Source: an uncultured Acidimicrobiia bacterium
GTDB taxonomy: Bacteria > Actinomycetota > Acidimicrobiia > Acidimicrobiales > SZUA-35
Direction of reading: 5' to 3'
DNA: 64,000 nucleotides
Assembly (NCBI GenBank): GCA_963781035.1
Contig: CAWAEN010000001.1
Location: forward strand, 35,386 to 99,385
The translations under genes were made by a program, and so were the position numbers. This document shows, piece by piece, positions 29,307-58,786 of this stretch (position 1 is the first letter of the stretch; each line of letters starts with the position of its first letter). Below the pieces are notes generated by a model. It made no database searches and was not told the origin of the DNA. It saw only the letters and a list, made by a program, of their open reading frames with translations.

Positions 29307-29957
29307 ATGGCGCCTGCCCGCAAGATCGCATTCATCGGTTCACACTCGGTTCGCAAGACGAATGCGGTCCATTCATTCGCCGGCGCAGTCGGACGCAGCG
29401 GACGGAGCGTCGAGGTCGGTCGGGAGGTCGTGCGTTTCAGCCCGCTCGGGCTCAACGAAGGCGCCACTCCCGAGGCTCAATTGTGGGCGATCATGACCCA
29501 GATCCAACAAGAGCTCGAGTTGCGGATGCGCGCTGATGTGTTGGTCGCCGATCGCGCCGTCATCGACAACTTCGCCTACTTCCTCCGAGTGACCGGAGGT
29601 GATGACCCGTTCGGCATCAAGCCTCTGGTGCGGAGCTGGTCGAAGACCTACGACCTCTATGTTCGCCTCCTCCCCGACATTCCGCTGAAAGCCGACGGTG
29701 TTCGCAGCACGAACCAGCGGTTCCGCAACGAGATCGAGAAGATCCTCGACCTGATCATCCCGCAGTACGTCGACGCTGACAGATTGGTCGAGCTCCGAGC
29801 GTCCGAGATCAGCGAAGCGTTCGACTGGGCCGGTCTGCTCGAGCGCCTGTGCGGCCCTGATCGGTCCCGACGTTCCAGTGCCCAAGCCGGTCAGCTACGC
29901 ACCGACACTCTGGGATTGATCGTTGGGCCGGAGTCCCTCGTAACCCTGACCTCGTGA
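29307..29957 (+). CDS. NMP-kinase/NadR-like P-loop protein with non-canonical Walker A (3' end uncertain)
   Basis: KIAFIGSHSVRKT, VADRAVID, YDL, DGVR. Confidence 0.7.
   Translation: MAPARKIAFIGSHSVRKTNAVHSFAGAVGRSGRSVEVGREVVRFSPLGLNEGATPEAQLWAIMTQIQQELELRMRADVLVADRAVIDNFAYFLRVTGGDDPFGIKPLVRSWSKTYDLYVRLLPDIPLKADGVRSTNQRFRNEIEKILDLIIPQYVDADRLVELRASEISEAFDWAGLLERLCGPDRSRRSSAQAGQLRTDTLGLIVGPESLVTLTS
29891..29921 (+). repeat. 31-bp direct repeat, copy A
   Basis: TCAGCTACGCACCGACACTCTGGGATTGATC; one mismatch to 36435..36465. Confidence 0.9.
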
Positions 29958-30035: not shown

Positions 30036-33000
30036 ATGGGCGCCAAGGACACGCGAGACTTCTCGTCTCGCGATGAACTCATCACTCGGACTGCGACGAT
30101 CGCTGCGATCGCCGCGGGCTTCTCTATCTGACGTGGCGCCTCGTCGCCTCTCTCAGCGTCGGGACGCTCTGGCTGGGGCTCCCGCTTCTCGTCGGTGAGC
30201 TCTGGGGTTTCTCACAGCTCCTGATTCTCACCTTCCAGGGCTGGAACGTGAGGGGACCCGGAGATCCCCGTCGCAGGTCTCGACGACGACGACGAGCCGG
30301 TCACGGTCATCGTCACCGCCCACGGCGCAGCGCTGGACGACATCGAGCACACGCTGCTGGCCACCGACGGCCTACGCGGTCCGCACGACGTCGTCGTGGT
30401 GGACCGTCACCACCGGCCCGAGGTGGCCGATCTCGCCGCGAACTACGGCGCAGAGCTTCTCCATCGCCGGCGAGCAAGCCTCCGACGGCTTCTGGCATGG
30501 CCGCTTGCGAGAGCCGACGTCCGTTCGCTGCCTGGGTGCACGCCGGGCACGTCCCGATGCCGCACTTCCTCGAGCGGACATTCGGAGCCGTTCGAAGACG
30601 CATCGGTTGCTGTGGTCCAGAGCGCCTTCGGCATGCTCAACAAGGACTCACTCGTCCATGTCCGTCATGGCCGCGACGAAGAGGCGTTCGAGCGCAGTGT
30701 TGTCGGGCCGGCGATGAGCCGACGGGGTCTGGCATCTTGGCTGGGCAGCGGATCGATGGTCCGGGTCATGGCCTTGAAGACGGTCGGTGGACTCGACGTC
30801 GGTGATTCCGCCGCCGTGCAACGCGCTGCGTCTCGGCTCCACCGGGCCGACTGGACATCGGTCTTCGAACCAGACGCCTCTCGTCTTCCGGCGACGCCCC
30901 CGACACGCTGGGTCAGTACCTCGCCGAGCATCGGCAGCGAGCGATCGAGCAACTCGAGATCATCCGCTCGGTCGACGGTCCGCTGCGGGCGCGTGGGCTC
31001 TCGCTCGCGGTCGCGCGTCGCGCAACTTGCGATCCGCAGTCCGTTTGCGAGCGGAGCGCAGTCGGTGATCACCACCGCCGTGCTCATCGGCGCACTCGTC
31101 TCCGGCGTCTTCCCTGTCGCAGCGACCGTTCCGGACTGGCTCATCGCGTGGGCGCCGTTCGGAATCCTCGGTACCTTCGCCCGACACAAGCTCGGTCGCG
31201 GGACGATGGCGTACGGCGACTGGATCCGGCACGGCTGGCGAACGATCGGTGCCGATGCCGAGCGCGTTCGCGGCAGTGTTCGGCCGTGTCGCCAGCGTCG
31301 ACAGCCGGAGGGAGCAGATCGATTCGAGGCGCTCGGCCGGCTTCGCCTTCTCACCTTCGCGATGGTCGGTCTCGATCTCGCACTCGTCGCCCGGGCGAGC
31401 ACGATCCTCTGGCACGATCTCCTACCGGAGTTCACGACCGCTCAACGTGTTGCGGTTCTCGGAGCCAGCCTCGTGGCAGTGGTCCCGATGGTCGATGTGC
31501 TTCAGGTGATCGTCCGAAGAAAGCAGCGACGAGCGAACTTCCGCATCGACCTCGACCTCCCGGCGACGATCGACGATGACTCGGTCACCACCATCGATCT
31601 GGCAGTGCACGGTGTTGCCCTTCGCCATGTCCGTCAGCTCGAGGTCGGGGAACGCGTGCGGGTGACGATCCGCCTGCCCCACGAGGTCGGGCCGCCGACC
31701 ACGGTTGCGACGGATGGTCTCGTGCGCTCGTGCTCGCCTCTCGATGACGAGGCGCTGGCGTGTCGGCATCGAGTTCGTCGATGTGCCGATCGAGGCCAGT
31801 GCCGCCCTCTTCAGGTTCTGCGCGATCGAGTACCCGATGTCGACGGGCGAGGACCACGCCAGCATCGAGGCCCGTTCTCCCGGCGAGCTCGAAGTGCACC
31901 CCGCCGCCCACCACGGACTGGCCCGCGTCGCGACGTTCGTCGCCGCGTCGCTCGGCGCGCTGACGATGCTGTTCGGTCCGGCCGCTCCGTCGGCGTTCGC
32001 GGCGACCCCGATCATCGACGGATCCGTCTGCCTCTCCGACTCGACGGGCGCGCCCCTCGCGGGCGGCGACGTGTCGTACTACTCGGGCGGCTGGTACACG
32101 TTCGGCACCACCGACGAGACGCGGCTGCGTGGCTGGGCTGCTCCCCGATGCTCGAACGACGTTCGCTGTCGTCTACGGCGGCACCCGCAACGAAATCTCC
32201 CAGGACCCGACCGTCGACCCGCATGTGAGCTTCTCGACCGTCGCAGTCGAGGTCGCCTTCACCGACTCCACCGGCGCCCCCTACGCCGACATCCCGGTCA
32301 ACTACTACGCCAGCGGCTGGAAAGACTTCGGCACCACCGACGACGACCGGCCACGCCACCCTCGAACTCCTCGCCCAACGCACCACCTTCGCCGTCACCT
32401 ACGGCGGCACCCGAAACGAAATCACCCAGGACACCCGCACCGCCACCAACATCGAACTTCGCCACCATCCCCGTCGAGGTCGCGTTCACCGACTCCACCG
32501 GCGCCCCCTTCGCCGACATCCCGGTCAACTACTACGCCAGCGGCTGGAAAGACTTCGGCACCACCGACGACAACGGCCACGCCACCCTCGAACTCCTCGC
32601 CCAACGCACCACCTTCGCCGTCACCTACGGCGGCACCCGAAACGAAATCACCCAGGACACCCGCACCGCCACCAACATCAACTTCGCCACCATCCCCGTC
32701 GAGGTCGCGTTCACCGACTCCACCGGCACCCCCTATCGCCGACATCCCGGTCAGCTACTACGCCAGCGGCTGGAAAGACTTCGGCACCACCGACGACGAA
32801 CGGCCACGCCACCCTCGAACTCCTCGCCCAACGCACCACCTTCGCCGTCACCTACGGCGGCACCGCCAAGCAGATCACCCAAGACACCCGCACCGCCACC
32901 AACATCGAACTTCGCCACCATCCCCGTCGAGGTCACCTTCACCGACTCCACCGGCGCCCCCTATCGCCGACATCCCGGTCAGCTACTACGCCAGCGGCTG

Positions 33001-34433
33001 GAAAGACTTCGGCACCACCGACGACGACCGGCCACGCCACCCTCGAACTCCTCGCCCAACGCACCACCTTCGGCGTCAACTACGGCGGCACCCGAAACGA
33101 AATCACCCAGGACACCCGCACGACACCACCGAGTTCAACTTCGCCACCGTCCCCGTCGACGTCACCTTCACCGACTCGACCGGCGCCCCCATCGCCGACG
33201 TCCCCGTCGACTACTACGCCAGCGGCTGGAAAGACCTCGGCACCACCGACGACGACCGGCCACGCCACCATCGAACTCCTCGCCCAACGCACCACCTTCG
33301 CCGTCACCATCGGCGGCACCACCAACCAGATCACCCAGGACACCCGCACCGCCACCAACATCGAATTCGCCACCGTCCCCGTCGAAGTCGCGTTGGTCAA
33401 CTCCACCGGCGCCCCCATCGCCGACGTCCCCGTCGGCTACTACGCCAGCGGCTGGAAAGACTTCGGCACCACCGACGACACCGGCCACGCCACCCTCGAA
33501 CTCCTCGCCCAACGCACCTACCTTCGCCGTCACCTATCGGCGGCACCTCCAAGCAGATCACCCAAGACACCCGCACCGACACCAACATCGAATTCGCCAC
33601 TGGCGCCGTCACCGGCGACCCGGTCGAGATCCTGTCCTACTACGCCAACGGCTGGAAGGCCTTCGTCTCTGGCATGGAGCTTCTGGGCCAGAGCGTGCCG
33701 TTCCGGCTCGCCGACGGGTCGACGCGCTCCTTCACGGTCGTCGCCGGCCAGTCGCTCGCAGTTCCGTCCGGCCTGATCACCGAGCCCATCGCACCAACCA
33801 CCACGACCGCACCAACGACCACCCCACCACCACCACCGCACCAACCACCACCGCACCAACCACCACGACCACCGCACCAACCACCACCGCACCAACCACC
33901 ACCGCACCACCACCACCGCACCAACCACCACCGCACCAACCACCACCACCGCACCAACGACCACCACCACCGCACCAACGACCACCCCACCACGTCCACG
34001 CCCACCACGGCCGCACCCACGACCACGGCACCGACCTCCGAAGCGTTCGACGAGGAAATCGCCAGCGCTGAACAACGCCTCAGCACCACGACCACCACCG
34101 CCGCACCACACCACCGCCGCACCAACCAGCGCTGCACCAACCACCGCCGCACCATCCACCGCCGCACCAACCACGACGCCACCCGCGACGACGGCACCGG
34201 CCTCGGACGATCTCGACCAGGGAGTTGTCAGTTCAGAGCCTGAGGTCGAAACCAACGCCGAGCCCCCGACCGAATCTGCCGCGGCGTCCGTACCCCAGCC
34301 CGGCAACCCGACCGACTCGTCCGAGGCCGATGGTGGAACTGTGTTCATCGCCCTTGGGATCGCCATCCTGGCCGGCGCGCTGCTCCTCTTCTTCCGAGTA
34401 CGGCGCCGAACGTTCGCCGGGAACGTCGACTGA
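30036..34433 (+). CDS. Degenerate BcsA-like GT2 + PilZ + extracellular 75-aa repeats + Thr/Pro stalk + C-terminal TM (frameshifted; probable single gene)
   Basis: GGAG RBS, ATG 30036; YLTWR N-terminal TM; GT2 scaffold; PilZ RRANFR/DLAVHG/GIEF; open frame from PilZ end into the first repeat; ends VFIALGIAILAGALLLFFRVRRR, TGA 34433. Confidence 0.75.
32020..33680 (+). repeat. Intragenic array of ~225-bp (75-aa) repeats: 6 close copies plus a divergent first and a partial last
   Basis: Units start near 32246, 32473, 32698, 32926, 33154, 33381; VEVAFTDSTGAPxADIPVxYYASGWKDFGTTD..GHATLELLAQRTTFAVTYGG. Confidence 0.95.
33790..34200 (+). repeat. Low-complexity coding repeat, (TTTAP)n stalk
   Basis: Repeated ACCACCACCGCACCA. 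Confidence 0.9.
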
Positions 34434-34461: not shown

Positions 34462-34652
34462 GGGGGAGCCGGCTACGGGGCTACCACGCTCGTCGGTCCG
34501 GAGTACATGTCGGTCTGCTTGACGGGTTCAAAACCGACGCTGAGGTAGAGGTGTTTCGCTGCCGGGTTGTCTTGTTCGAAGCAGATCTTGATGCGCTTGG
34601 CGCCGGCCTCGGCAAGCCGATCGATTCCGGTGGTGAGTATGTGGCGGGAGCC
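34462..34652 (-). pseudogene. Duplicated 3' end of the GNAT gene at 37089..37977 (direct repeat B)
   Basis: ~190 bp nearly identical to ~37078..37270; HILTTGIDRLAEAGAKRIKICFEQDNPAA...VVAP. Confidence 0.9.
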
Positions 34653-34769: not shown

Positions 34770-36393
34770 GAACGACCTGGACGCCGAATCGATGGGTGGC
34801 TTTCTCGATTCGCGCCGTGATGCTTCTTGGTCCGGTTGCGGCCGGATTCGTGGCGGTTCAGTCCGCCGCGGTGTTGGTGCCGAGGCCGGGATCCCCTGCT
34901 CTGGATGCGCTGTGGCTCGTCCTTCTGATGGCCGTGTCGTTCGCTGCAGCCCTCGTGGTGCAGCGGTTCACCAAGTACCTGGCACCCCTTCGCACGCTGT
35001 TCACGCTTTCGCTCGTATTCCCTGACGAGGCTCCCTCGCCGATTCCGCTCCGCGAGCCTGCGAACCGGTACGGGCCGGCAGCTCGCGCAACGCCGACCGA
35101 CCGGGATCGGACCCGAGCAGGCTGCGGCGGAGGACCTCGTCACCTCGCTCGCTCGCCTGAGTCGTCACGATCGACTCACCAGGGGTCACGCCGAACGGGT
35201 TCGGGCCTACTCCGTCATGCTCGGCGAGGAAGTCGGTCTCGCTGCCGGACGATCTCGGAGAAGCTGAACTGGGTGCGTTGGCCCACGACATCGGCAAGCT
35301 CCACGTTCCCACGGAGATCCTGAACAAGCCCGGGGCGCCCGACCGACGCCGAGTGGGACGTATTGCGGACCGCACCGGGGTGCAGCGGCCGACCACGTGG
35401 AGCCGCTTCGCTCATGGCTCGGCGACTGGGTGGACGCAGCGACCCAGCACCACGAGCGCTATGACGGCAACGGGTACCCGCTAGGGCTGGCCGGATCGGA
35501 GATCGGGCTCGCCGGTCGACTCGTGTCGATCGCAGATGCGTTCGACGTCATGACGGCCACCCGCTCCTAAAGAAGCCTCTCCCGCTCGAGCAGGCACGGC
35601 CGAGCTCGTACGCAATGCCGGCTCGCAATTCGACCCCGCGCTCGTACGAGCGTTCCTTCGCGTTTCCGTCGGCGAGCTCCGATGGGTTGTCGGGCCTCTG
35701 GGTGGCTCTCGCATCTCCCGACTCCCGCGAGCCCCACTCACGGGCCTGGCGAACAGCCTCCGGATCGGCCGCAGTAGCGACCGTGACCGTAGGAGCCACT
35801 CTTGCGGTTGTCGCACCCGTCACCACGTTGTCGGACCCCGATCCGGGGGTGGAGCGGGCCGCGTCGGTGGAGTCGGTCGACGATCTGATCGAGGCTCCGA
35901 GCCCGCAGGCAATGGTGGACGAAAGCAGCAGCCGTTCCCGTTCCTCGCTGATCACGGTTCCCTCGACGAGCGTTGCACCCTCGACCACGACGAGCGTTGC
36001 ACCCTCGACCACGACGAGCGTTGCACCCTCGACCACGACGTGAAGTGACCGCATCCTCGACCACGACGAGCGTGGCACCCTCGACCACGACGACGACAAG
36101 GCCGCCCGGCGGCATGGTTGCCGGCGATGACCTCTACACGATCACGAAGGCGTCGTTCACGGTGCTGGCCGTTCAGGACAACGATGTTCCGGGAACGGGC
36201 AAGCTGGATCCCTCAGCCACAGAGATCGCGCAGATCACCGTCCCGCGGGACAGTCACCGTTCAGGGGCTCACGATTCGCTACACCCCAAATCCCGGCGAG
36301 ACATCGGGTGTCGACAGCTTCGTCTATCGGGCTTGTGACAACGGTTTGTCATGCGACACAGCGACCGTGACGCTGACGCTCGCTGTCACCTAG
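34770..36393 (+). CDS. Membrane HD-GYP phosphodiesterase with Ser/Thr stalk and C-terminal Ig-like (Big_9-type) domain (frameshifted; start uncertain)
   Basis: TRGHAERV, HDIGK, HHERYDGNGYP, IADAFDVMT, QFDP; AGDD..NDV..YTPNPG..GVDSFVYRACD..DTATVTL. Confidence 0.85.
35962..36095 (+). repeat. 24-bp coding repeats (PSTTTSVA)n
   Basis: TCGACCACGACGAGCGTTGCACCC about five times. Confidence 0.85.
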
Positions 36394-36961: not shown

Positions 36962-37088
36962 CGGACTTCCTTTTCGGTAGATCATGGACCGCGCCAGCGA
37001 TATGTTCGTGGTTGTCACCGGCGCGGCGTTGACCGATCCACGACTCACGGAGTTGGAACACGAGACACAACGGCGTCGGGGGAGCCGA

Positions 37089-37977
37089 CTACGGGGCTAC
37101 CACGCTCGTCGGTCCGGAGTACATCTCGGTCTGCTTGACAGGTTCGAAACCGACGCTGAGGTAGAGGTGTTCCGCTGCCGGGTTGTCTTGTTCGAAGCAG
37201 ATCTTGATGCGCTTGGCGCCGGCCTCGGCAAGCCGGTCGATTCCGGTGGTGAGTATGTGGCGGGCGAGCCCTCGTCCCTGGTGATCGTCTTCGGTGCGCA
37301 TGGGTTCGACCTGACCTGTGGCGGTTTCGGCGTCGTACCAGAACAATCCATACGCCGCGGTGTCGCCGTGACTGTCCTGCACCACCAGGTCGAGGTCGGG
37401 GCGATACAGCGACGTTTGAAGCAGGCGTGGCTCGACATCGACGTGGTTGCGCTTCGTCGAGATCATGTGATGGGGACTCCCCATGGTGTCGACACGACTG
37501 GACAACCGATAGCCGTCGTGCAGCGGGCTGATCTCCGGCCGCTCGCCTGCAGCGATCCATGACTCGACCAATCCAGGTTCCTTGATCGCAAAGCCATGAC
37601 CGACCAACACCTCACGCATCACCTCATCAGCAGAGTCGACCTCGAGTTGAACATCTTCGAACCCGGAGGCGCTGGCGTGATCAAGCCCGCGCCCGATGAC
37701 GTGTGCAATCCAGTCAGGAGTTGCATCTGGCAGGAGAAGCGGATCGAGCGCCAGCCCGTCGCCCCAGGCGGTCGCGATCACCGCAGCCTCTGGGCGACCG
37801 AGATCGTCGAACCAGAAGAGCTGATCGAGGTTGTCCGTTGTCGCGCGGGGAACGCCACCACCACTGCAGATCGGCCGCTTCGTACAGCCCCTTGGTGGGG
37901 TGCATGCCACGGGCTCGTTGCAGCAGTGCCGTCACAGCTTCCAGGTAGTCGAGTCCGACCCGATGTTCTTCTCGCAT
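37089..37977 (-). CDS. GNAT acetyltransferase (frameshift near 37850)
   Basis: VEPMRTEDDHQGRGLA, LYLSVGF. Confidence 0.85.
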
Positions 37978-50848: not shown

Positions 50849-51054
50849 TCACGCGTACGAGCGCACCGTGGAGAGCCTTCATCGCCGGCTGGCGGTGCCA
50901 GATGGATCGGACCACCGCACTGGCCAATGCTCGACATCGGCGCCGAGGGGATTCCTTTGCGACATCGCTGGTTGAGTCGCCCCTCTTGACCTAGGTTGCG
51001 AAGAAGCACGACGGCAGCCGAATGCGTTGCCGTCTCCAAGAGAGGGACCTCATC

Positions 51055-51813
51055 ATGAACACCCCAGCACGTTCGCATCGTCGCGTCGTCTTTGGCTGCT
51101 TGGCAGCTGGAGCAGCGCTCGCTCTGGTCGCCGCCTCCCCCGCAGCGGCTCAAGACCCCGAAGAATTCCGGGGGACCTTCGGCCAGCTCAACGGTTCGGG
51201 ACTCAGCGGTGAGGTGAGTGTGACACTCACCGGCACCAGCGCCGAAGTCACCCTGAACGTTGACGGCGTGGTCGATTTGGTACATGCGCAGCACTTCCAC
51301 GGCGAATACGGGGTCGAGAACACGTGTCCGACCGACGCCCTCGACGTCGACGGTGACGGACTCGTGAGCACGGTGGAGGGAGTTCCCTCGTATGGCGCGG
51401 TGAAGGCCTCGTTGGTGACGGAAGGTCCGACGGATGAATCGTATGCGCTCGCCATATCCAGCTTCCCCGTCGCCAGCGGCGGCAGCTACGACTACACCCG
51501 CACCATCGAGGTGCCACAGGAACTCGCCGACAACATGGAGAACATGATCGTTGTCGTGCACGGGATCGATCTCGACGACAGCGGCGAGTACGACGGTGAC
51601 GCGCCGAGCTCCCTCGACGCATCACTGCCACTCGAAGCCACGATTCCCGCTGGTTGCGCCACGATGGTCGCCGCCGGTATGACGCCGACCGGGTCGGTGG
51701 CTGCAGGAGCCGGCGGCACAGCTGCAGATGGCTCCTCTGCTCCACTATGGGTCGTCGCCGCAGGGCTTGGCACTCTCGCATTGGCGACGGGTGTGCGTCG
51801 CCGCAAGGCGTGA
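51055..51813 (+). CDS. Secreted protein with sortase-F-type sorting signal
   Basis: Signal peptide; HAQHFHG, DVDGDG, VVHGID; PTGSVAAGAGG + TM + RRRK. Confidence 0.8.
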   Translation: MNTPARSHRRVVFGCLAAGAALALVAASPAAAQDPEEFRGTFGQLNGSGLSGEVSVTLTGTSAEVTLNVDGVVDLVHAQHFHGEYGVENTCPTDALDVDGDGLVSTVEGVPSYGAVKASLVTEGPTDESYALAISSFPVASGGSYDYTRTIEVPQELADNMENMIVVVHGIDLDDSGEYDGDAPSSLDASLPLEATIPAGCATMVAAGMTPTGSVAAGAGGTAADGSSAPLWVVAAGLGTLALATGVRRRKA

Positions 51814-52480
51814 TCCCATCTGCTCGCCGCCGGGCGGCCGTCTCGATTTTCGTGGCGGCCGGCCTGTGTGCAGCCGGATGTTCGACAACGGATCGGACAG
51901 CGGCGGTTGAGGGCGCCGGCAACGGTGCCGTCGCCTCAGCCGACCGACAACGATGAGGGACTCGGGCTCACAGCCGAAGTCGCAGGGGCCGCGTCCCTCT
52001 CCCACCGCTGGGTCAGGCACCTCGGTGTCAAGGCCAGTGGTCTCACCCCCGCGCCAGGTCGTGATCCCCTCGATCGATGTCGACGCTCCGATCATCGATC
52101 TCGGCCTCACCGCAGAGGGGGCCCTCGAGACGCCGACCGACTTCGACACGGCAGGGTGGTGGGCCGGTGGGACCGTCGCCGCCGAAGTGGGGCCGACCGT
52201 CATCGTCGGACACGTCGACGACACCAACGGACCTGCGGTCTTCTTCCGACTGCAGGAGCTGGAGCCGGGCGACTCGATCATCGTGATCGATGACCTCGGT
52301 CGCGAGCAGACCTTCGCGGTTGTCGACAAGGGTCTCTATGACAAGACTTCGTTCCCGACCGAGCGGGTGTACGGAGCGAGTGGCACCCCCACGCTTCGGC
52401 TGGTGAGCTGTGGCGGCGAGTTCGACCGTTCCGAGCGAAGCTATGAGTCCAACTGGGTGGTCTACGCCGTTTCCGCGTGA
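51810..52480 (+). CDS. Class F sortase (frameshift near 51950)
   Basis: GTGA overlap; lipobox-like AAGC; GHVD, LVSCGG, YESNWVV. Confidence 0.9.
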
Positions 52481-55721: not shown

Positions 55722-57111
55722 CTACGGCTTGGTCTCTTCGGTTCCGGTGGCGGTCGTGGGTTCGTCGTCCACGTACAGCCGTAGCTTGAACCAGTCGACC
55801 TCGACCCAGTGGGAGCTCGTGCTCAGGCCCGACAAGAGCGGTCCGATGCGTACCGGATCGGAGAGACCGCTCGTGAAGTTCACGTTGGTCCCGACCTCGC
55901 CCCAGGTCATGCCGTCAGCAGAGTTGAATGCTCTCGATGAGTCGCCGACCCGGGTGACGCGGTTGTAGTCGTATCGCTGACCCAGCTGCTCGGCCGTCGC
56001 GCCTCCGGTGGCCGACCGGTAGGAGTTGGTCGATCCGGCGCTGGTGTGGACCTCTGACATGTTGCGGTTCACGGAGATGTCGCTCGAGGAGTCACGCAGG
56101 TGGACACCGCCGTACTTCGACCAGCCCCCGTGGGTGCCGCCGATGGTGGTCGTGAAGGACTCGGCGAGGAAGTCGCCCGAGACGTCGCGAGCCAGGTGGT
56201 AGAGGTCGTCGGAGGTGCCCCAGATGTCACCGGTGTTGGTCGCCGAGATCCTGACCACGGTTCCGCTCTCGGCTCACCGTGCCGCCGGCCACCGTGCCGA
56301 TGGCGTCCAGGTTCCAACCGGTGCCGAGGGTCGCGTCGTCGAAGTCGTCCCAGACCGCATACACCGCCGTCTTGTCCGCGGGTGGACTCGCGGCGACGGG
56401 GTTGTCGTAGTAGAGGTAGTAGTCGGCGTCATCGGAGCCGACTGCGATGTCCGCCTGGAGCGAGAACCACACGGTCGTGTCGACAACTCCCCAGCCGGAC
56501 CCCTCCTGGAGCACGCGGTCGAGCTCCGACCACGTGCAGTCACTCCCCTCCAAGCGCAGGACTCGTAGGTCGTCCCCGCTGGGGAGCGACTTGCCGTCGG
56601 CCACCAGTTGCGCGTGGTCGACGGCCACACTGACCGAATAGCCAGTGGTCACGCTGTCGGAGCCGGTGCTGACACTGAAGCGGGCTCGATGCTCATACGC
56701 CGCATCCCACCAGGTGGGGAAAGGGCAGCAGACCACCTCGCTACTCTTCGCACTCTCCCAGGCGCCGACAAAGGCTTGCACGACGTAGTAGTAGGTGGAT
56801 GTTGGTGGGCCGTCGGAGTAGGTCACTGTCGACCGCGGCGTCACCTCGCCGATCTGGGTGTACGGCCCGCCGGATGTGGTTGATCGGAATGTGCGATGAC
56901 CAGACGCGTAGGTGTCGGGTGTCGCCGTCCACTCGAGGTCATTCGCTGCGCCGCACGCAGCAGTCAGGCCGGTCGGCGCTTCGAGGATGTCGCCGGTGAA
57001 CTCGCTGCCCTCGTTGCTGCTGGGATTGGTGAAGTTTGCGCCCGCCGTTGGCAGCGCAACCGGGAAGAGGAGCAACGCGGCCACCAGCAAGGTTCTCGCA
57101 TGGATCCTCAT
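55722..57111 (-). CDS. SipW-type signal protein with FN3-like, DUF2341-like and lectin-like regions (frameshift near 56270)
   Basis: TAGANFTN signal end; WWDAAY, DDLRV, YYLYYDNP, WDDFDD; DIWGTSDD. Confidence 0.7.
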
Positions 57112-57681
57112 GAGGGAACTTCGACCTCCGAGGGTGGTGTCGTGTGCCAGGGGTCGTATCGAGGTTCGACGGCGAACTGTGCCAACCACAGGGCCAGCGC
57201 CGTCGACCGCCACGGTCAGAACGAGCTGTGGCCACTGGCCTTGAGCGGCCCAGACTCGAGGAAGCCCGACAAAGGGAACGATCCACCGGGCCCTGCCACG
57301 CATGTTCTCCGCCGGAACCAGTGCGTCGGTGACAGCTGCGGCGTCGCCCTTGGTGACGTAGGAGCCGTCCTCGTTCTGAGAGACGACACGATGAGTGACG
57401 AGGCTCGGGTTGCTCGGGTCGCGCGGGTCCTCGTAGACAACGACGGTGTCGGGGGCGATCTCTGTGCCATCGTGCTCGACGCTGACGACCACGTCACCGA
57501 TGCGAAGCGCTGGCATCATTGATCCCGAGGTGATCGAGGCGGCACTGTGTCCCGGAACGATCATCGGGACGACGGTCATCACCGTCAGCCCACCAAATGT
57601 CATCAGTGCGGCGAGAGCGACGAGACCGCTGTAGAACAGCGCAACGTCGCTGCGACTGGCGGGACTTGGCATGACCGTCAT
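57108..57681 (-). CDS. sipW: SipW-type signal peptidase I (frameshift near 57200)
   Basis: SGSMMP..GD, VTHRV, TKGD; TGA overlapping the next ATG. Confidence 0.85.
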
Positions 57682-57712
57682 CGCGTCTCCGACCGTGATC
57701 CCTGCGTGGCTG

Positions 57713-58303
57713 CTAGTTATTCGTTGCGAGCCACTCGAACTCCACGCCGTCGACCCTGCTGTTCTGGGTCGAGTTGGGAGCGCCCGAATCGAGGGTGACG
57801 GTGATCTCGTAGTAGCGACTCTCGTCTGTGCCGGGCACTGCCGGCTGCCAAGCCGCCTCGGTGATCCCCGGAGCGGACAAGGTCCCGCTCGCAACGGCGA
57901 CCGGCGCGCCGTCGACGCACGTCGGAGACGTGTGTCGATCGATCGTGAGATTCATCTCGGCGCCGATTGCGTTTTCGTTCACTCCGCTGATCGTGGCCGA
58001 GTCCAACAGGATGTCCGCGTCCACCGACCCCTCGTAGATCACTTCGAAGCAGACGGTGTTGCTGTCGCCGGGAACCATGTCGCTGATGGTGAACAGGGCA
58101 GACCCGGTCTCGTCAAAGGTCGGAGAGGCTCCATCGGCGGTTGCGGCTTCGTTGACGAGGATCAGGCTCCCGGAGGTCCATGCATTTGCATCATTCGACG
58201 TGGGGTTGGTGAAGAGAGCCCGCGAGGTACCCATCACCATCAAGAAGGCCATGAGCATCCCTCCGGCGATGGCGGCAGATCTGAGCGTGGTGGTACGAGA
58301 CAT
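57713..58303 (-). CDS. TasA/CalY-like fibre subunit
   Basis: Signal ending GTSRALFTN..N.WTSGSL; MVPGDS; C-terminal Q..FEWLA; adjacent to sipW. Confidence 0.75.
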   Translation of the reverse strand: MSRTTTLRSAAIAGGMLMAFLMVMGTSRALFTNPTSNDANAWTSGSLILVNEAATADGASPTFDETGSALFTISDMVPGDSNTVCFEVIYEGSVDADILLDSATISGVNENAIGAEMNLTIDRHTSPTCVDGAPVAVASGTLSAPGITEAAWQPAVPGTDESRYYEITVTLDSGAPNSTQNSRVDGVEFEWLATNN

Positions 58304-58786
58304 AGTGGGCGTTTCCCTTCGTCGATCACCCAGCCTCGGCAGCACGGCCATCAGAATGAGGACCTCAACCCATCCACGGCTGAACCTGCCGCCCCCAGGC
58401 CTTGGATGCCATCTCTCGAGTCTCGACGCGCACGCTCCATACGTCGTTGGCGACTCCGCCAGCGAGCGGTTCGATACGAGCAACGTCGTCACCCCACTGC
58501 TCGAATGCCTCCCATCTCACGGGCCACATGATGGCAGAGTCGGCGAATGTCCGATCACCTTCGAGACTCCTACGACGCCATGGCTGAACAGTATGCGGCG
58601 CTGCCCCGGCCAGATTGCTGAAGCTCGGCGTGCGTGCCCCGATTCGCAGTTCCAAGTGGGTGACCTTGCGGCACCGGATGTTGCCGATCGCACCTTGCTG
58701 GCGGCATCAGAGCTGATCTCGATCACTCCAGTGAAGGACAGGTTCCAGCGGTTCGCTCTGGGTCTGTGCCCGCTCGGCAACTGCTG

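Follow-up and report, generated by a model that had tools for sequence, protein, structure and literature searches.

What is left for a cellulose synthase to do once it has lost its catalytic residues, kept its domain for binding cyclic di-GMP (c-di-GMP) and acquired a surface repeat protein as its tail? The question is raised by a gene at positions 30036 to 34433 of a 64,000-nucleotide stretch of DNA from an uncultured Acidimicrobiia bacterium (GenBank assembly GCA_963781035.1, contig CAWAEN010000001.1, positions 35,386 to 99,385), referred to here as the window; the assembly is 4.7 Mb long, in 15 contigs, and 80% complete. A first interpretation made from the letters alone (the sequence-only reading) proposed a dead synthase scaffold fused to a surface repeat protein, a proposal now supported by motif counts, by ratios of non-synonymous to synonymous substitution (dN/dS) and by a model with the BcsA fold. 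The gene encodes a catalytically dead BcsA-fold protein in which the PilZ motifs are intact, it is truly fused, and it is under purifying selection. We also suggest, tentatively and from sequence comparisons, that its product is a polyprotein in which the pseudo-synthase, as a c-di-GMP receptor, may control the cleavage and display of a swappable passenger with a CnaB/transthyretin fold.

The gene runs from a start codon at 30036 to a stop at 34431-34433 and is interrupted by single- and two-base insertions and deletions (indels); the coordinates of its parts were counted by hand from a three-frame translation and are accurate to a few bases:

30036..34433, forward strand: whole gene, about 1,450 codons, broken by indels here and a single frame in the orthologue (L009) of a genome of the same genus (G004)
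30084..30240, forward strand: membrane helices 1 and 2 of the six-helix synthase core (helices 12-39 and 45-69 of the orthologue model)
30294..31055, forward strand: dead glycosyltransferase family 2 (GT2) domain with the GT-A fold, placed by alignment to BcsA
30402-30410, 30539-30547, 30810-30818 and 30926-30940, forward strand: sites of the DDG, DxD, TED and QxxRW motifs within the dead GT2 domain
30902-30904, forward strand: Asp equivalent to E371 of BcsA, also within the dead GT2 domain
31056..31514, forward strand: membrane helices 3 to 6 and interface helix, placed by the orthologue model; the motif count finds the FxVTxK gating loop absent
31515..31833, forward strand: PilZ domain and C-terminal interface helix, with RxxxR at 31530-31544 and DxxxxG at 31596-31613
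31834..32001, forward strand: linker and internal signal-peptide-like segment, with a basic n-region, a hydrophobic helix, Gly-Pro and Ala-x-Ala
31918-31974 and 31993-32001, forward strand: hydrophobic helix of that segment (helix 622-642 of the orthologue model) and its Ala-x-Ala, with a predicted signal peptidase I cut after 32001
32002..33599, forward strand: seven beta-sandwich repeats of about 75 residues, CnaB/transthyretin-like in the model of a relative
33600..33785, forward strand: conserved cap domain, the last domain of stand-alone secreted relatives
33786..34340, forward strand: Thr/Ala/Pro-rich stalk, containing a 15-base array, and acidic spacer
34341..34433, forward strand: C-terminal membrane anchor and basic cytoplasmic tail

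All of the elements named in the sequence-only reading were recovered at the positions it had given them. Alignment to solved BcsA structures confirms the losses that it described in DDG, in which the second Asp has become Arg and the first is kept, in DxD, in which His and Gly replace both aspartates, and in QxxRW, in which Gln has become Glu and Trp has become Arg. The TED motif had been placed one residue too early; at the true site, 30810-30818, the catalytic Asp is gone as claimed, Val standing in its stead. Both PilZ motifs are retained, again as described, and Pfam recognizes the domain above its cut-off (E 3e-06). The roles of the catalytic, gating and PilZ motifs are taken from work on BcsA (PMC8892547). 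An AlphaFold model of the orthologue (pLDDT 91) contains six membrane helices and a seventh after PilZ, has BcsA as its best match (Foldseek E 4e-29), and superposes on E. coli BcsA (9fmz) with Z 33.7 and a root-mean-square deviation (rmsd) of 3.7 over 579 residues; against the NCBIfam CelA model the orthologue scores 51.2 bits, below the cut-off of 699. The repeats also bear out the description given of them, with a motif at 32077, 32303, 32530, 32756, 32984, 33212, 33438 and 33638 marking seven repeats and the cap, and with a period of 228 bases in 6.3 copies at 91% match reported by TRF; the Thr/Ala/Pro array is likewise present, as is the hydrophobic helix at the C-terminus with its basic tail. 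A scan for promoters and terminators gave no signal beyond chance.

Is the fusion real, and is this copy alive? The orthologue in G004, 83% identical over the part searched, has one open frame of 861 codons that runs from the first membrane helix into the repeats and on to the contig end, a paralogue in the window's own genome (C4) has one frame of 1604 codons, and window and orthologue align without an indel from codon 568 (within PilZ) to codon 692 (first repeat). The fusion is thus not an artefact of stitching, the continuation through PilZ without a stop is upheld, and we reject the idea that an indel hides a separate gene for the passenger. Another explanation of the broken frame is that the family is functional but that the copy in this strain is a pseudogene. 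Its indel density is indeed high, with 17 internal indels in 2.5 kb (6.8 per kb), about twice the 3.2 frame-shifting indels per kb found across 41 orthologous blocks (299 kb) aligned with G004, of which 7 reach at least 6.5 per kb; the gene shows 21 gap openings in 2.6 kb and its immediate neighbours 11 in 5.3 kb. Against this, indels occur throughout the assembly (651 insertions and 303 deletions relative to G004 in the 299 kb), the gene has the same bias towards insertions (15 to 2), and there is no stop in the 755 codons compared with G004 once indel-adjacent codons are excluded; we consider a pseudogene quite unlikely. The insertions do not look like merged alleles of two strains, since 5 of the 15 adjoin a mismatch, against a background of 0.41.

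The relatives, mostly from metagenome-assembled genomes of Acidimicrobiia, show that the loss of catalytic motifs is a property of a family. A pattern scan of GTDB genomes returned 27 loci, nearly all of them single frames with a dead GT2 domain, PilZ, a hydrophobic helix and beta domains. The family counts rest on the best 150 matches of a profile search of 1.84 billion representatives, from which 19 were set aside for gaps at the scored motifs; the 131 scorable proteins comprise 83 that are fused (a class that counts about ten with very short passengers), 22 intact synthases, none of them fused, and 26 unfused proteins that are wholly or partly dead. DxD, TED and QxxRW are missing from every one of the 83 fused proteins, and all 83 keep, on the PilZ barrel, D/NxxxxG and both arginines of RxxxR (residues R580 and R584 in R. 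sphaeroides BcsA); the third position of DxSxxG frequently carries Thr or Ala in the family. No fused protein retains the catalytic Asp, the Trp of QxxRW or the Lys of HAKAG, at the second Asp position of DxD 99% of the fused class have Gly and 100% of intact proteins Asp, and the FxVTxK gating loop is present in 0/83 fused versus 20/22 intact proteins. Selection is evident in the comparison of window and orthologue, with dN/dS of 0.145 for the GT domain, 0.16 for the membrane parts, 0.34 for PilZ, 0.131 for the linker and signal segment, and 0.38 for the passenger; whole frames of eight other close pairs give 0.16-0.44. None of the three outcomes that the sequence-only reading named as refuting it (a stop after PilZ, restored motifs, decay without selection) was encountered for this protein in the relatives. 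The pseudo-synthase very probably makes no polysaccharide, and from its retained motifs the PilZ domain probably binds c-di-GMP.

Phylogenetically, the fused proteins all fall on one side of a single branch, together with eight nested unfused proteins, in a tree for which no root was inferred (SH-aLRT 98), and the same split is recovered in a random subset of 54 rows with the motif columns removed (96/91). Matches at E 1e-40 occur in 17 of 401 genomes sampled across the phylum; among the 17 loci read from that sample three are dead and fused, all of the same order, and 12 are intact, all unfused. Within the order 25 of 301 genomes match at 1e-60, and the family is therefore patchy; the phylum-wide and order-wide tallies each include one unpublished genome, and no other claim depends on either.

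Several members of the wider pool deserve mention in their own right. Degenerate BcsA-PilZ proteins with no passenger occur at L013, L014, L083 and L100, all in genomes of the order Acidimicrobiales, and form a wider pool of pseudo-synthases. Matches with stops in G396 were considered as split versions and rejected, as these proteins are degenerate but unfused, and no neighbouring gene for a secreted protein is evident. The longest passenger encountered is that of L101 (G396:C15:8687-10531), a dead fused protein in an open frame of 3387 codons, while L018 and L029 carry two tandem PilZ domains ahead of the signal segment. L021 lies on a contig filed under Chthoniobacterales, nests among the Acidimicrobiia with the same operon as described below, and is possibly misbinned. 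A GT2 protein with intact motifs and many membrane helices is encoded at L049:5999-9931 (reverse strand; G000:C6), and its C-terminal domain reads like a serine beta-lactamase fold, a label given by reading.

How does the passenger relate to the membrane? The sequence-only reading correctly saw a membrane helix after PilZ and took it for a permanent anchor; we revise the second part, and the helix is likely better read, from its sequence, as a cleavable internal signal peptide. It has the layout of one, with a basic n-region, a hydrophobic h-region, a Gly-Pro helix breaker and a small-x-Ala site. The pattern Pro…[AVSG]xA follows it in 27 of 33 sequences that remain once seven rows that were duplicates, fragments or unfused are removed (in one of the 27 a frameshift falls at this point), a pattern count on kin sequences which are not independent, and follows helices 1 to 6 in 0/30, 1/30, 7/32, 1/32, 0/33 and 0/33, with 6.6% among background 12-mers. 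The Ala-x-Ala (AxA) stays in register across proteins that are only 22-41% identical. The small-x-Ala also ends 7-8 residues before the first strand in all six scorable stand-alone relatives and all ten scorable fused proteins, the first strand being placeable by pattern in 6 of 23 stand-alone and 10 of 83 fused sequences. The Gly-Pro that closes the helix shows at least 90% conservation, which exceeds what an ordinary signal peptide requires, and a Cys before the linker is 96% conserved. Two things temper this assignment: AxA is common in Ala-rich actinobacterial helices, as the 7/32 after helix 3 illustrates, and a broader count in which 80 of 83 fused proteins have AxA used a loose pattern with no control.

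Could the passenger instead be translated on its own? The linker holds no conserved internal start codon, a start being found in 17 of 27 loci versus 421 of 531 background windows and a start with a Shine-Dalgarno sequence in 3 of 27 versus 43 of 531; a conserved internal translation start is unsupported by these counts. No split receptor and passenger pair with its own start was seen among the loci examined. Since the passenger matches stand-alone secreted relatives and has no internal start, a complete secreted protein, signal peptide included, would so appear to be made only as the tail of a pseudo-synthase. The predicted topology places PilZ inside and the passenger outside, with the C-terminal helix of the window protein as a second anchor. 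Of the 83 fused proteins 48 have such an anchor; the remainder end freely in the stalk, as secreted proteins do. With a post-PilZ helix that reads as a cleavable signal peptide, the product of the gene is likely a polyprotein that undergoes processing.

The passenger itself is of a familiar type. Its repeats occur also in 23 stand-alone proteins, many of which carry an N-terminal signal peptide and have the same cap as their last domain. A model of the L029 passenger (pLDDT 91) shows tandem seven-stranded beta-sandwiches of about 80 residues, which match 3e8v (Z 11.6, rmsd 2.0, 78 residues) and the CnaB2 domain 8bdw (Z 9.4, rmsd 2.6, 83 residues), that is, sandwiches of the CnaB/transthyretin type found in Gram-positive pilins and adhesin stalks; the TapA fold is absent from the listed matches of the passenger fold searches. 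Across the family the receptor half is kept while the passengers vary: 30 fused proteins chosen for length and diversity, of up to 2,646 residues, carry SdrD_B, CarboxypepD_reg, SpaA or DUF7507 arrays, or no named domain. A Pfam scan of 30 long members and the orthologue found no BcsB (the families were SdrD_B, CarboxypepD_reg, SpaA and Big_1), the stand-alone relatives of the repeats are likewise not BcsB, and searches of the ESM Atlas returned only generic GT2/PilZ clusters and Ig/CarboxypepD clusters. As separate observations, stand-alone long-passenger genes adjoin HDOD genes at three loci and a GGDEF gene at one (L023, L026, L028 and L034).

Gene context connects the family with protein fibres. 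Among 27 distinct loci for which 2.9 kb or more of downstream sequence is available, 19 have the fusion gene in the lead of TasA-like/SipW genes that lie directly 3' of it in the same orientation, stop and start codons often overlapping; these loci were drawn from the window's subgroup, and the context of the SdrD-type subgroup is barely covered. The profiles for TasA-like and SipW genes were built partly from the loci being counted, and Pfam and NCBIfam provide independent support, the SipW-type peptidases scoring above the cut-off of TIGR02228. A full operon has four camelysin/TasA-like genes, a SipW-GGDEF-EAL protein and a SipW-DUF2341-LamG protein. The SipW-GGDEF-EAL protein keeps its GGDEF and EAL-type motifs in 15 of 15 cases (L020:13437-16433 and 14 other loci). 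In the SipW-DUF2341-LamG protein an internal SipW-type signal, visible in nine of ten stretches inspected, links the SipW peptidase within a single frame to what is probably its own substrate; this second polyprotein of the operon is found at L012:3346-7026, L020:17868-21362 and eight more loci. No bcsB-type neighbour is found among the annotated genes near the relatives. The other eight of the 27 loci, and the window gene, stand apart from the operon. The G004 orthologue groups with four non-operon loci, long-repeat forms (96/95), and of five genomes with such a stand-alone copy three have SipW genes above cut-off, in operons led in 3/3 genomes by another fused pseudo-synthase.

How might such a polyprotein work? 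The seventh helix would lead the passenger out through Sec, after which signal peptidase I would cut the passenger off, and it is probable from the layout of the helix that it does thread the passenger through Sec and serve as the substrate of that peptidase. The dead synthase would bind c-di-GMP, its output being the holding or exposing of the seventh helix; that the helix stays docked on the pseudo-synthase, with the c-di-GMP state deciding whether it is cut, is a proposal that we hold tentatively. In the form seen in the window, the passenger would be a loop anchored at both ends until it is cut, and would thereafter stand upright as a stalked rod on its C-terminal helix; in the operon form, which has no C-terminal anchor, cutting would release a TapA-like accessory of a TasA-type fibre. 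Control in cis would account for three observations: the receptor is found joined to unrelated cargoes, no split pair is seen, and the signal helix is unusually conserved at its end. With somewhat more reserve we propose that a cellulose synthase has here become a self-contained, c-di-GMP-gated display valve, in which the dead enzyme holds its own signal peptide and times the release of an adhesin or fibre nucleator, and that a machine for a polysaccharide matrix now controls, in one gene, a TasA-type matrix of protein fibres.

Several observations weigh against this gated polyprotein. The window's own copy lies outside the operon from which the link with fibres is drawn, and the term adhesin is drawn from fold and layout. 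The output of c-di-GMP binding known from BcsA is lost, the gating loop being gone, and the E371 position provides weak support for a retained switch: near-invariantly acidic in the window's subgroup, it is acidic in 50/83 fused and 4/22 intact proteins, and we have downgraded the E371-R580 switch as strong evidence accordingly. Dead synthases with no passenger make up 26 of the 131 scorable proteins, eight of them nested in the fused group, and two (P0055 and P0057) keep the seventh helix; since such relatives exist, the receptor can work without cargo.

If the passenger were instead always cut at export, the fusion would serve only to set stoichiometry and place, and the pseudo-synthase, once free, would be a c-di-GMP receptor that acts in trans, either on the SipW-GGDEF-EAL protein or on the machinery of the fibre. 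There is a precedent in G. hansenii AcsAB, one polypeptide that is processed into AcsA and AcsB (PMC4877109, PMC9757748), the operon contains a second polyprotein in SipW joined to its own substrate, and the dead unfused relatives fit a receptor that acts alone. Free fission would then be expected, yet the split pair with its own start has not appeared, the module moves with unrelated passengers outside the operon, and the conserved Gly-Pro and Cys suggest docking; we regard constitutive cutting as somewhat unlikely. The sequence-only reading left the helix uncut, in one membrane platform that would pass the c-di-GMP state outward or surface contact inward. The single reading frame and the persistence of the helix in P0055 and P0057 favour that model, and residues after an AxA can block cutting, as in RsiV (PMC6066255); AxA is nevertheless in register across highly divergent proteins, a second anchor is already present in 48 of the 83 and the rest end in a stalk in the manner of secreted proteins, which makes an uncut platform unlikely. 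Very unlikely, in our judgement, is a GT domain that still binds a sugar nucleotide or glycan, that transfers sugar by an altered chemistry, for example onto the Thr-rich stalk, or whose core is a gated channel. The fold is kept, the pocket and channel positions Tyr31, Arg35, Glu55, Gln194 and His207 are conserved in fused proteins, and the first DxD position is acidic in 81% of them; the uniform absence of the catalytic Asp, the QxxRW Trp, the HAKAG Lys and FxVTxK argues otherwise, and the GT domain of fused proteins has no new conserved acidic residue that intact enzymes lack.

LapD is a degenerate enzyme based on HAMP and GGDEF-EAL domains, and these LapD-type domains are not among the Pfam matches of the window protein or its orthologue. 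The logic that we propose for the gated polyprotein is that of LapD-LapG-LapA in Pseudomonas fluorescens, in which cleavage of a surface adhesin is under the control of a membrane receptor for cytoplasmic c-di-GMP (PMC3032545). LapD acts in trans on a dedicated periplasmic protease; here receptor and cargo form one chain, with PilZ on a synthase scaffold and signal peptidase as the proposed protease. The six-helix core, GT-A domain, PilZ RxxxR and DxSxxG, and C-terminal interface helix are shared with BcsA (R. sphaeroides 4P00/4HG6, E. coli 9FMZ/7LBY), whereas the pseudo-synthase is without DxD, TED, QxxRW, HAKAG and FxVTxK and bears a C-terminal protein passenger. In Komagataeibacter (Gluconacetobacter) hansenii AcsAB/BcsAB a synthase with PilZ runs into an exported, tail-anchored beta protein in one gene (PMC4877109, PMC9757748, PMC8892547), but that enzyme is active and carries BcsB, whereas the dead enzyme here carries a swappable array of the CnaB/transthyretin type. 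In Bacillus subtilis RsiV a signal peptidase site at an internal membrane helix is protected until ligand binds (PMC6066255); there the ligand, lysozyme, is outside and a sigma factor is freed inside, whereas the proposed ligand of the pseudo-synthase is inside and its output outside. The operons of the relatives resemble tapA-sipW-tasA of B. subtilis and the archaeal bundling pili, being led by the fusion gene, which occupies the slot of tapA, and containing SipW peptidases and TasA/camelysin-like proteins. TapA is a secreted beta-sandwich accessory (PMC9245690); unlike TapA, the passenger has an AxA and not a SipW-type site, it is fused to a pseudo-synthase, and the window copy lies outside the operon. 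The family is outside the membership of BcsA, as an active enzyme, of BcsAB and of LapD. The FbcH polyprotein of Bradyrhizobium may offer a further precedent for a processed chain.

Searches of an open-access literature library yielded no description of a family of dead BcsA-PilZ proteins with passengers, and we know of no described family of BcsA pseudoenzymes. If our interpretation is true, dead cellulose synthases, selected across more than 80 clusters at 50% identity, would constitute a new class of membrane c-di-GMP receptor, a second messenger would control cleavage by signal peptidase from the cell interior, and this abundant class of actinobacteria, most of it uncultured, would provide a direct evolutionary route from polysaccharide to protein in the biofilm matrix. 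Should cleavage be gated, the module would offer a portable means of c-di-GMP-controlled display, many passengers having already been swapped by nature.

Other features of the window lie close to the gene or bear on its possible partners:

34790..36393, forward strand: HD-GYP-type membrane protein, frameshifted, with a Thr stalk and Big_9 (HD_5 E 2.7e-12; Big_9 E 1.9e-08)
29886..29921: left copy of a 36-base direct repeat, of which there are only two copies in the genome
36430..36465: right copy of the repeat, 92% identical
55722..58492, reverse strand: reduced TasA-like/SipW/DUF2341-like locus 21 kb away, a candidate partner by the link seen in relatives

The HD-GYP gene is a probable c-di-GMP phosphodiesterase that may be associated with the window gene, and would be another c-di-GMP enzyme attached to a surface module. 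The 36-base repeats bracket a 6.5-kb block that contains the pseudo-synthase gene and the HD-GYP gene, and are possibly the scar of an insertion. A separate duplication of 187 bases (97%), at 34462-34648 and 37078-37264, flanks the HD-GYP block and corresponds to the 3' end of an acetyltransferase-like gene, a label given by reading. The locus at 55722-58492, the only TasA-like/SipW locus found by profiles in this 80% complete genome, contains a TasA-like gene (57713-58492), which has no Pfam family and scores 60.8 bits with our own profile, followed by a SipW-type peptidase and a DUF2341-like secreted protein. A sortase gene (PF04203, E 2e-21) at 51022-52480 on the forward strand lies directly behind a gene for a secreted protein with a C-terminal hydrophobic, basic tail.

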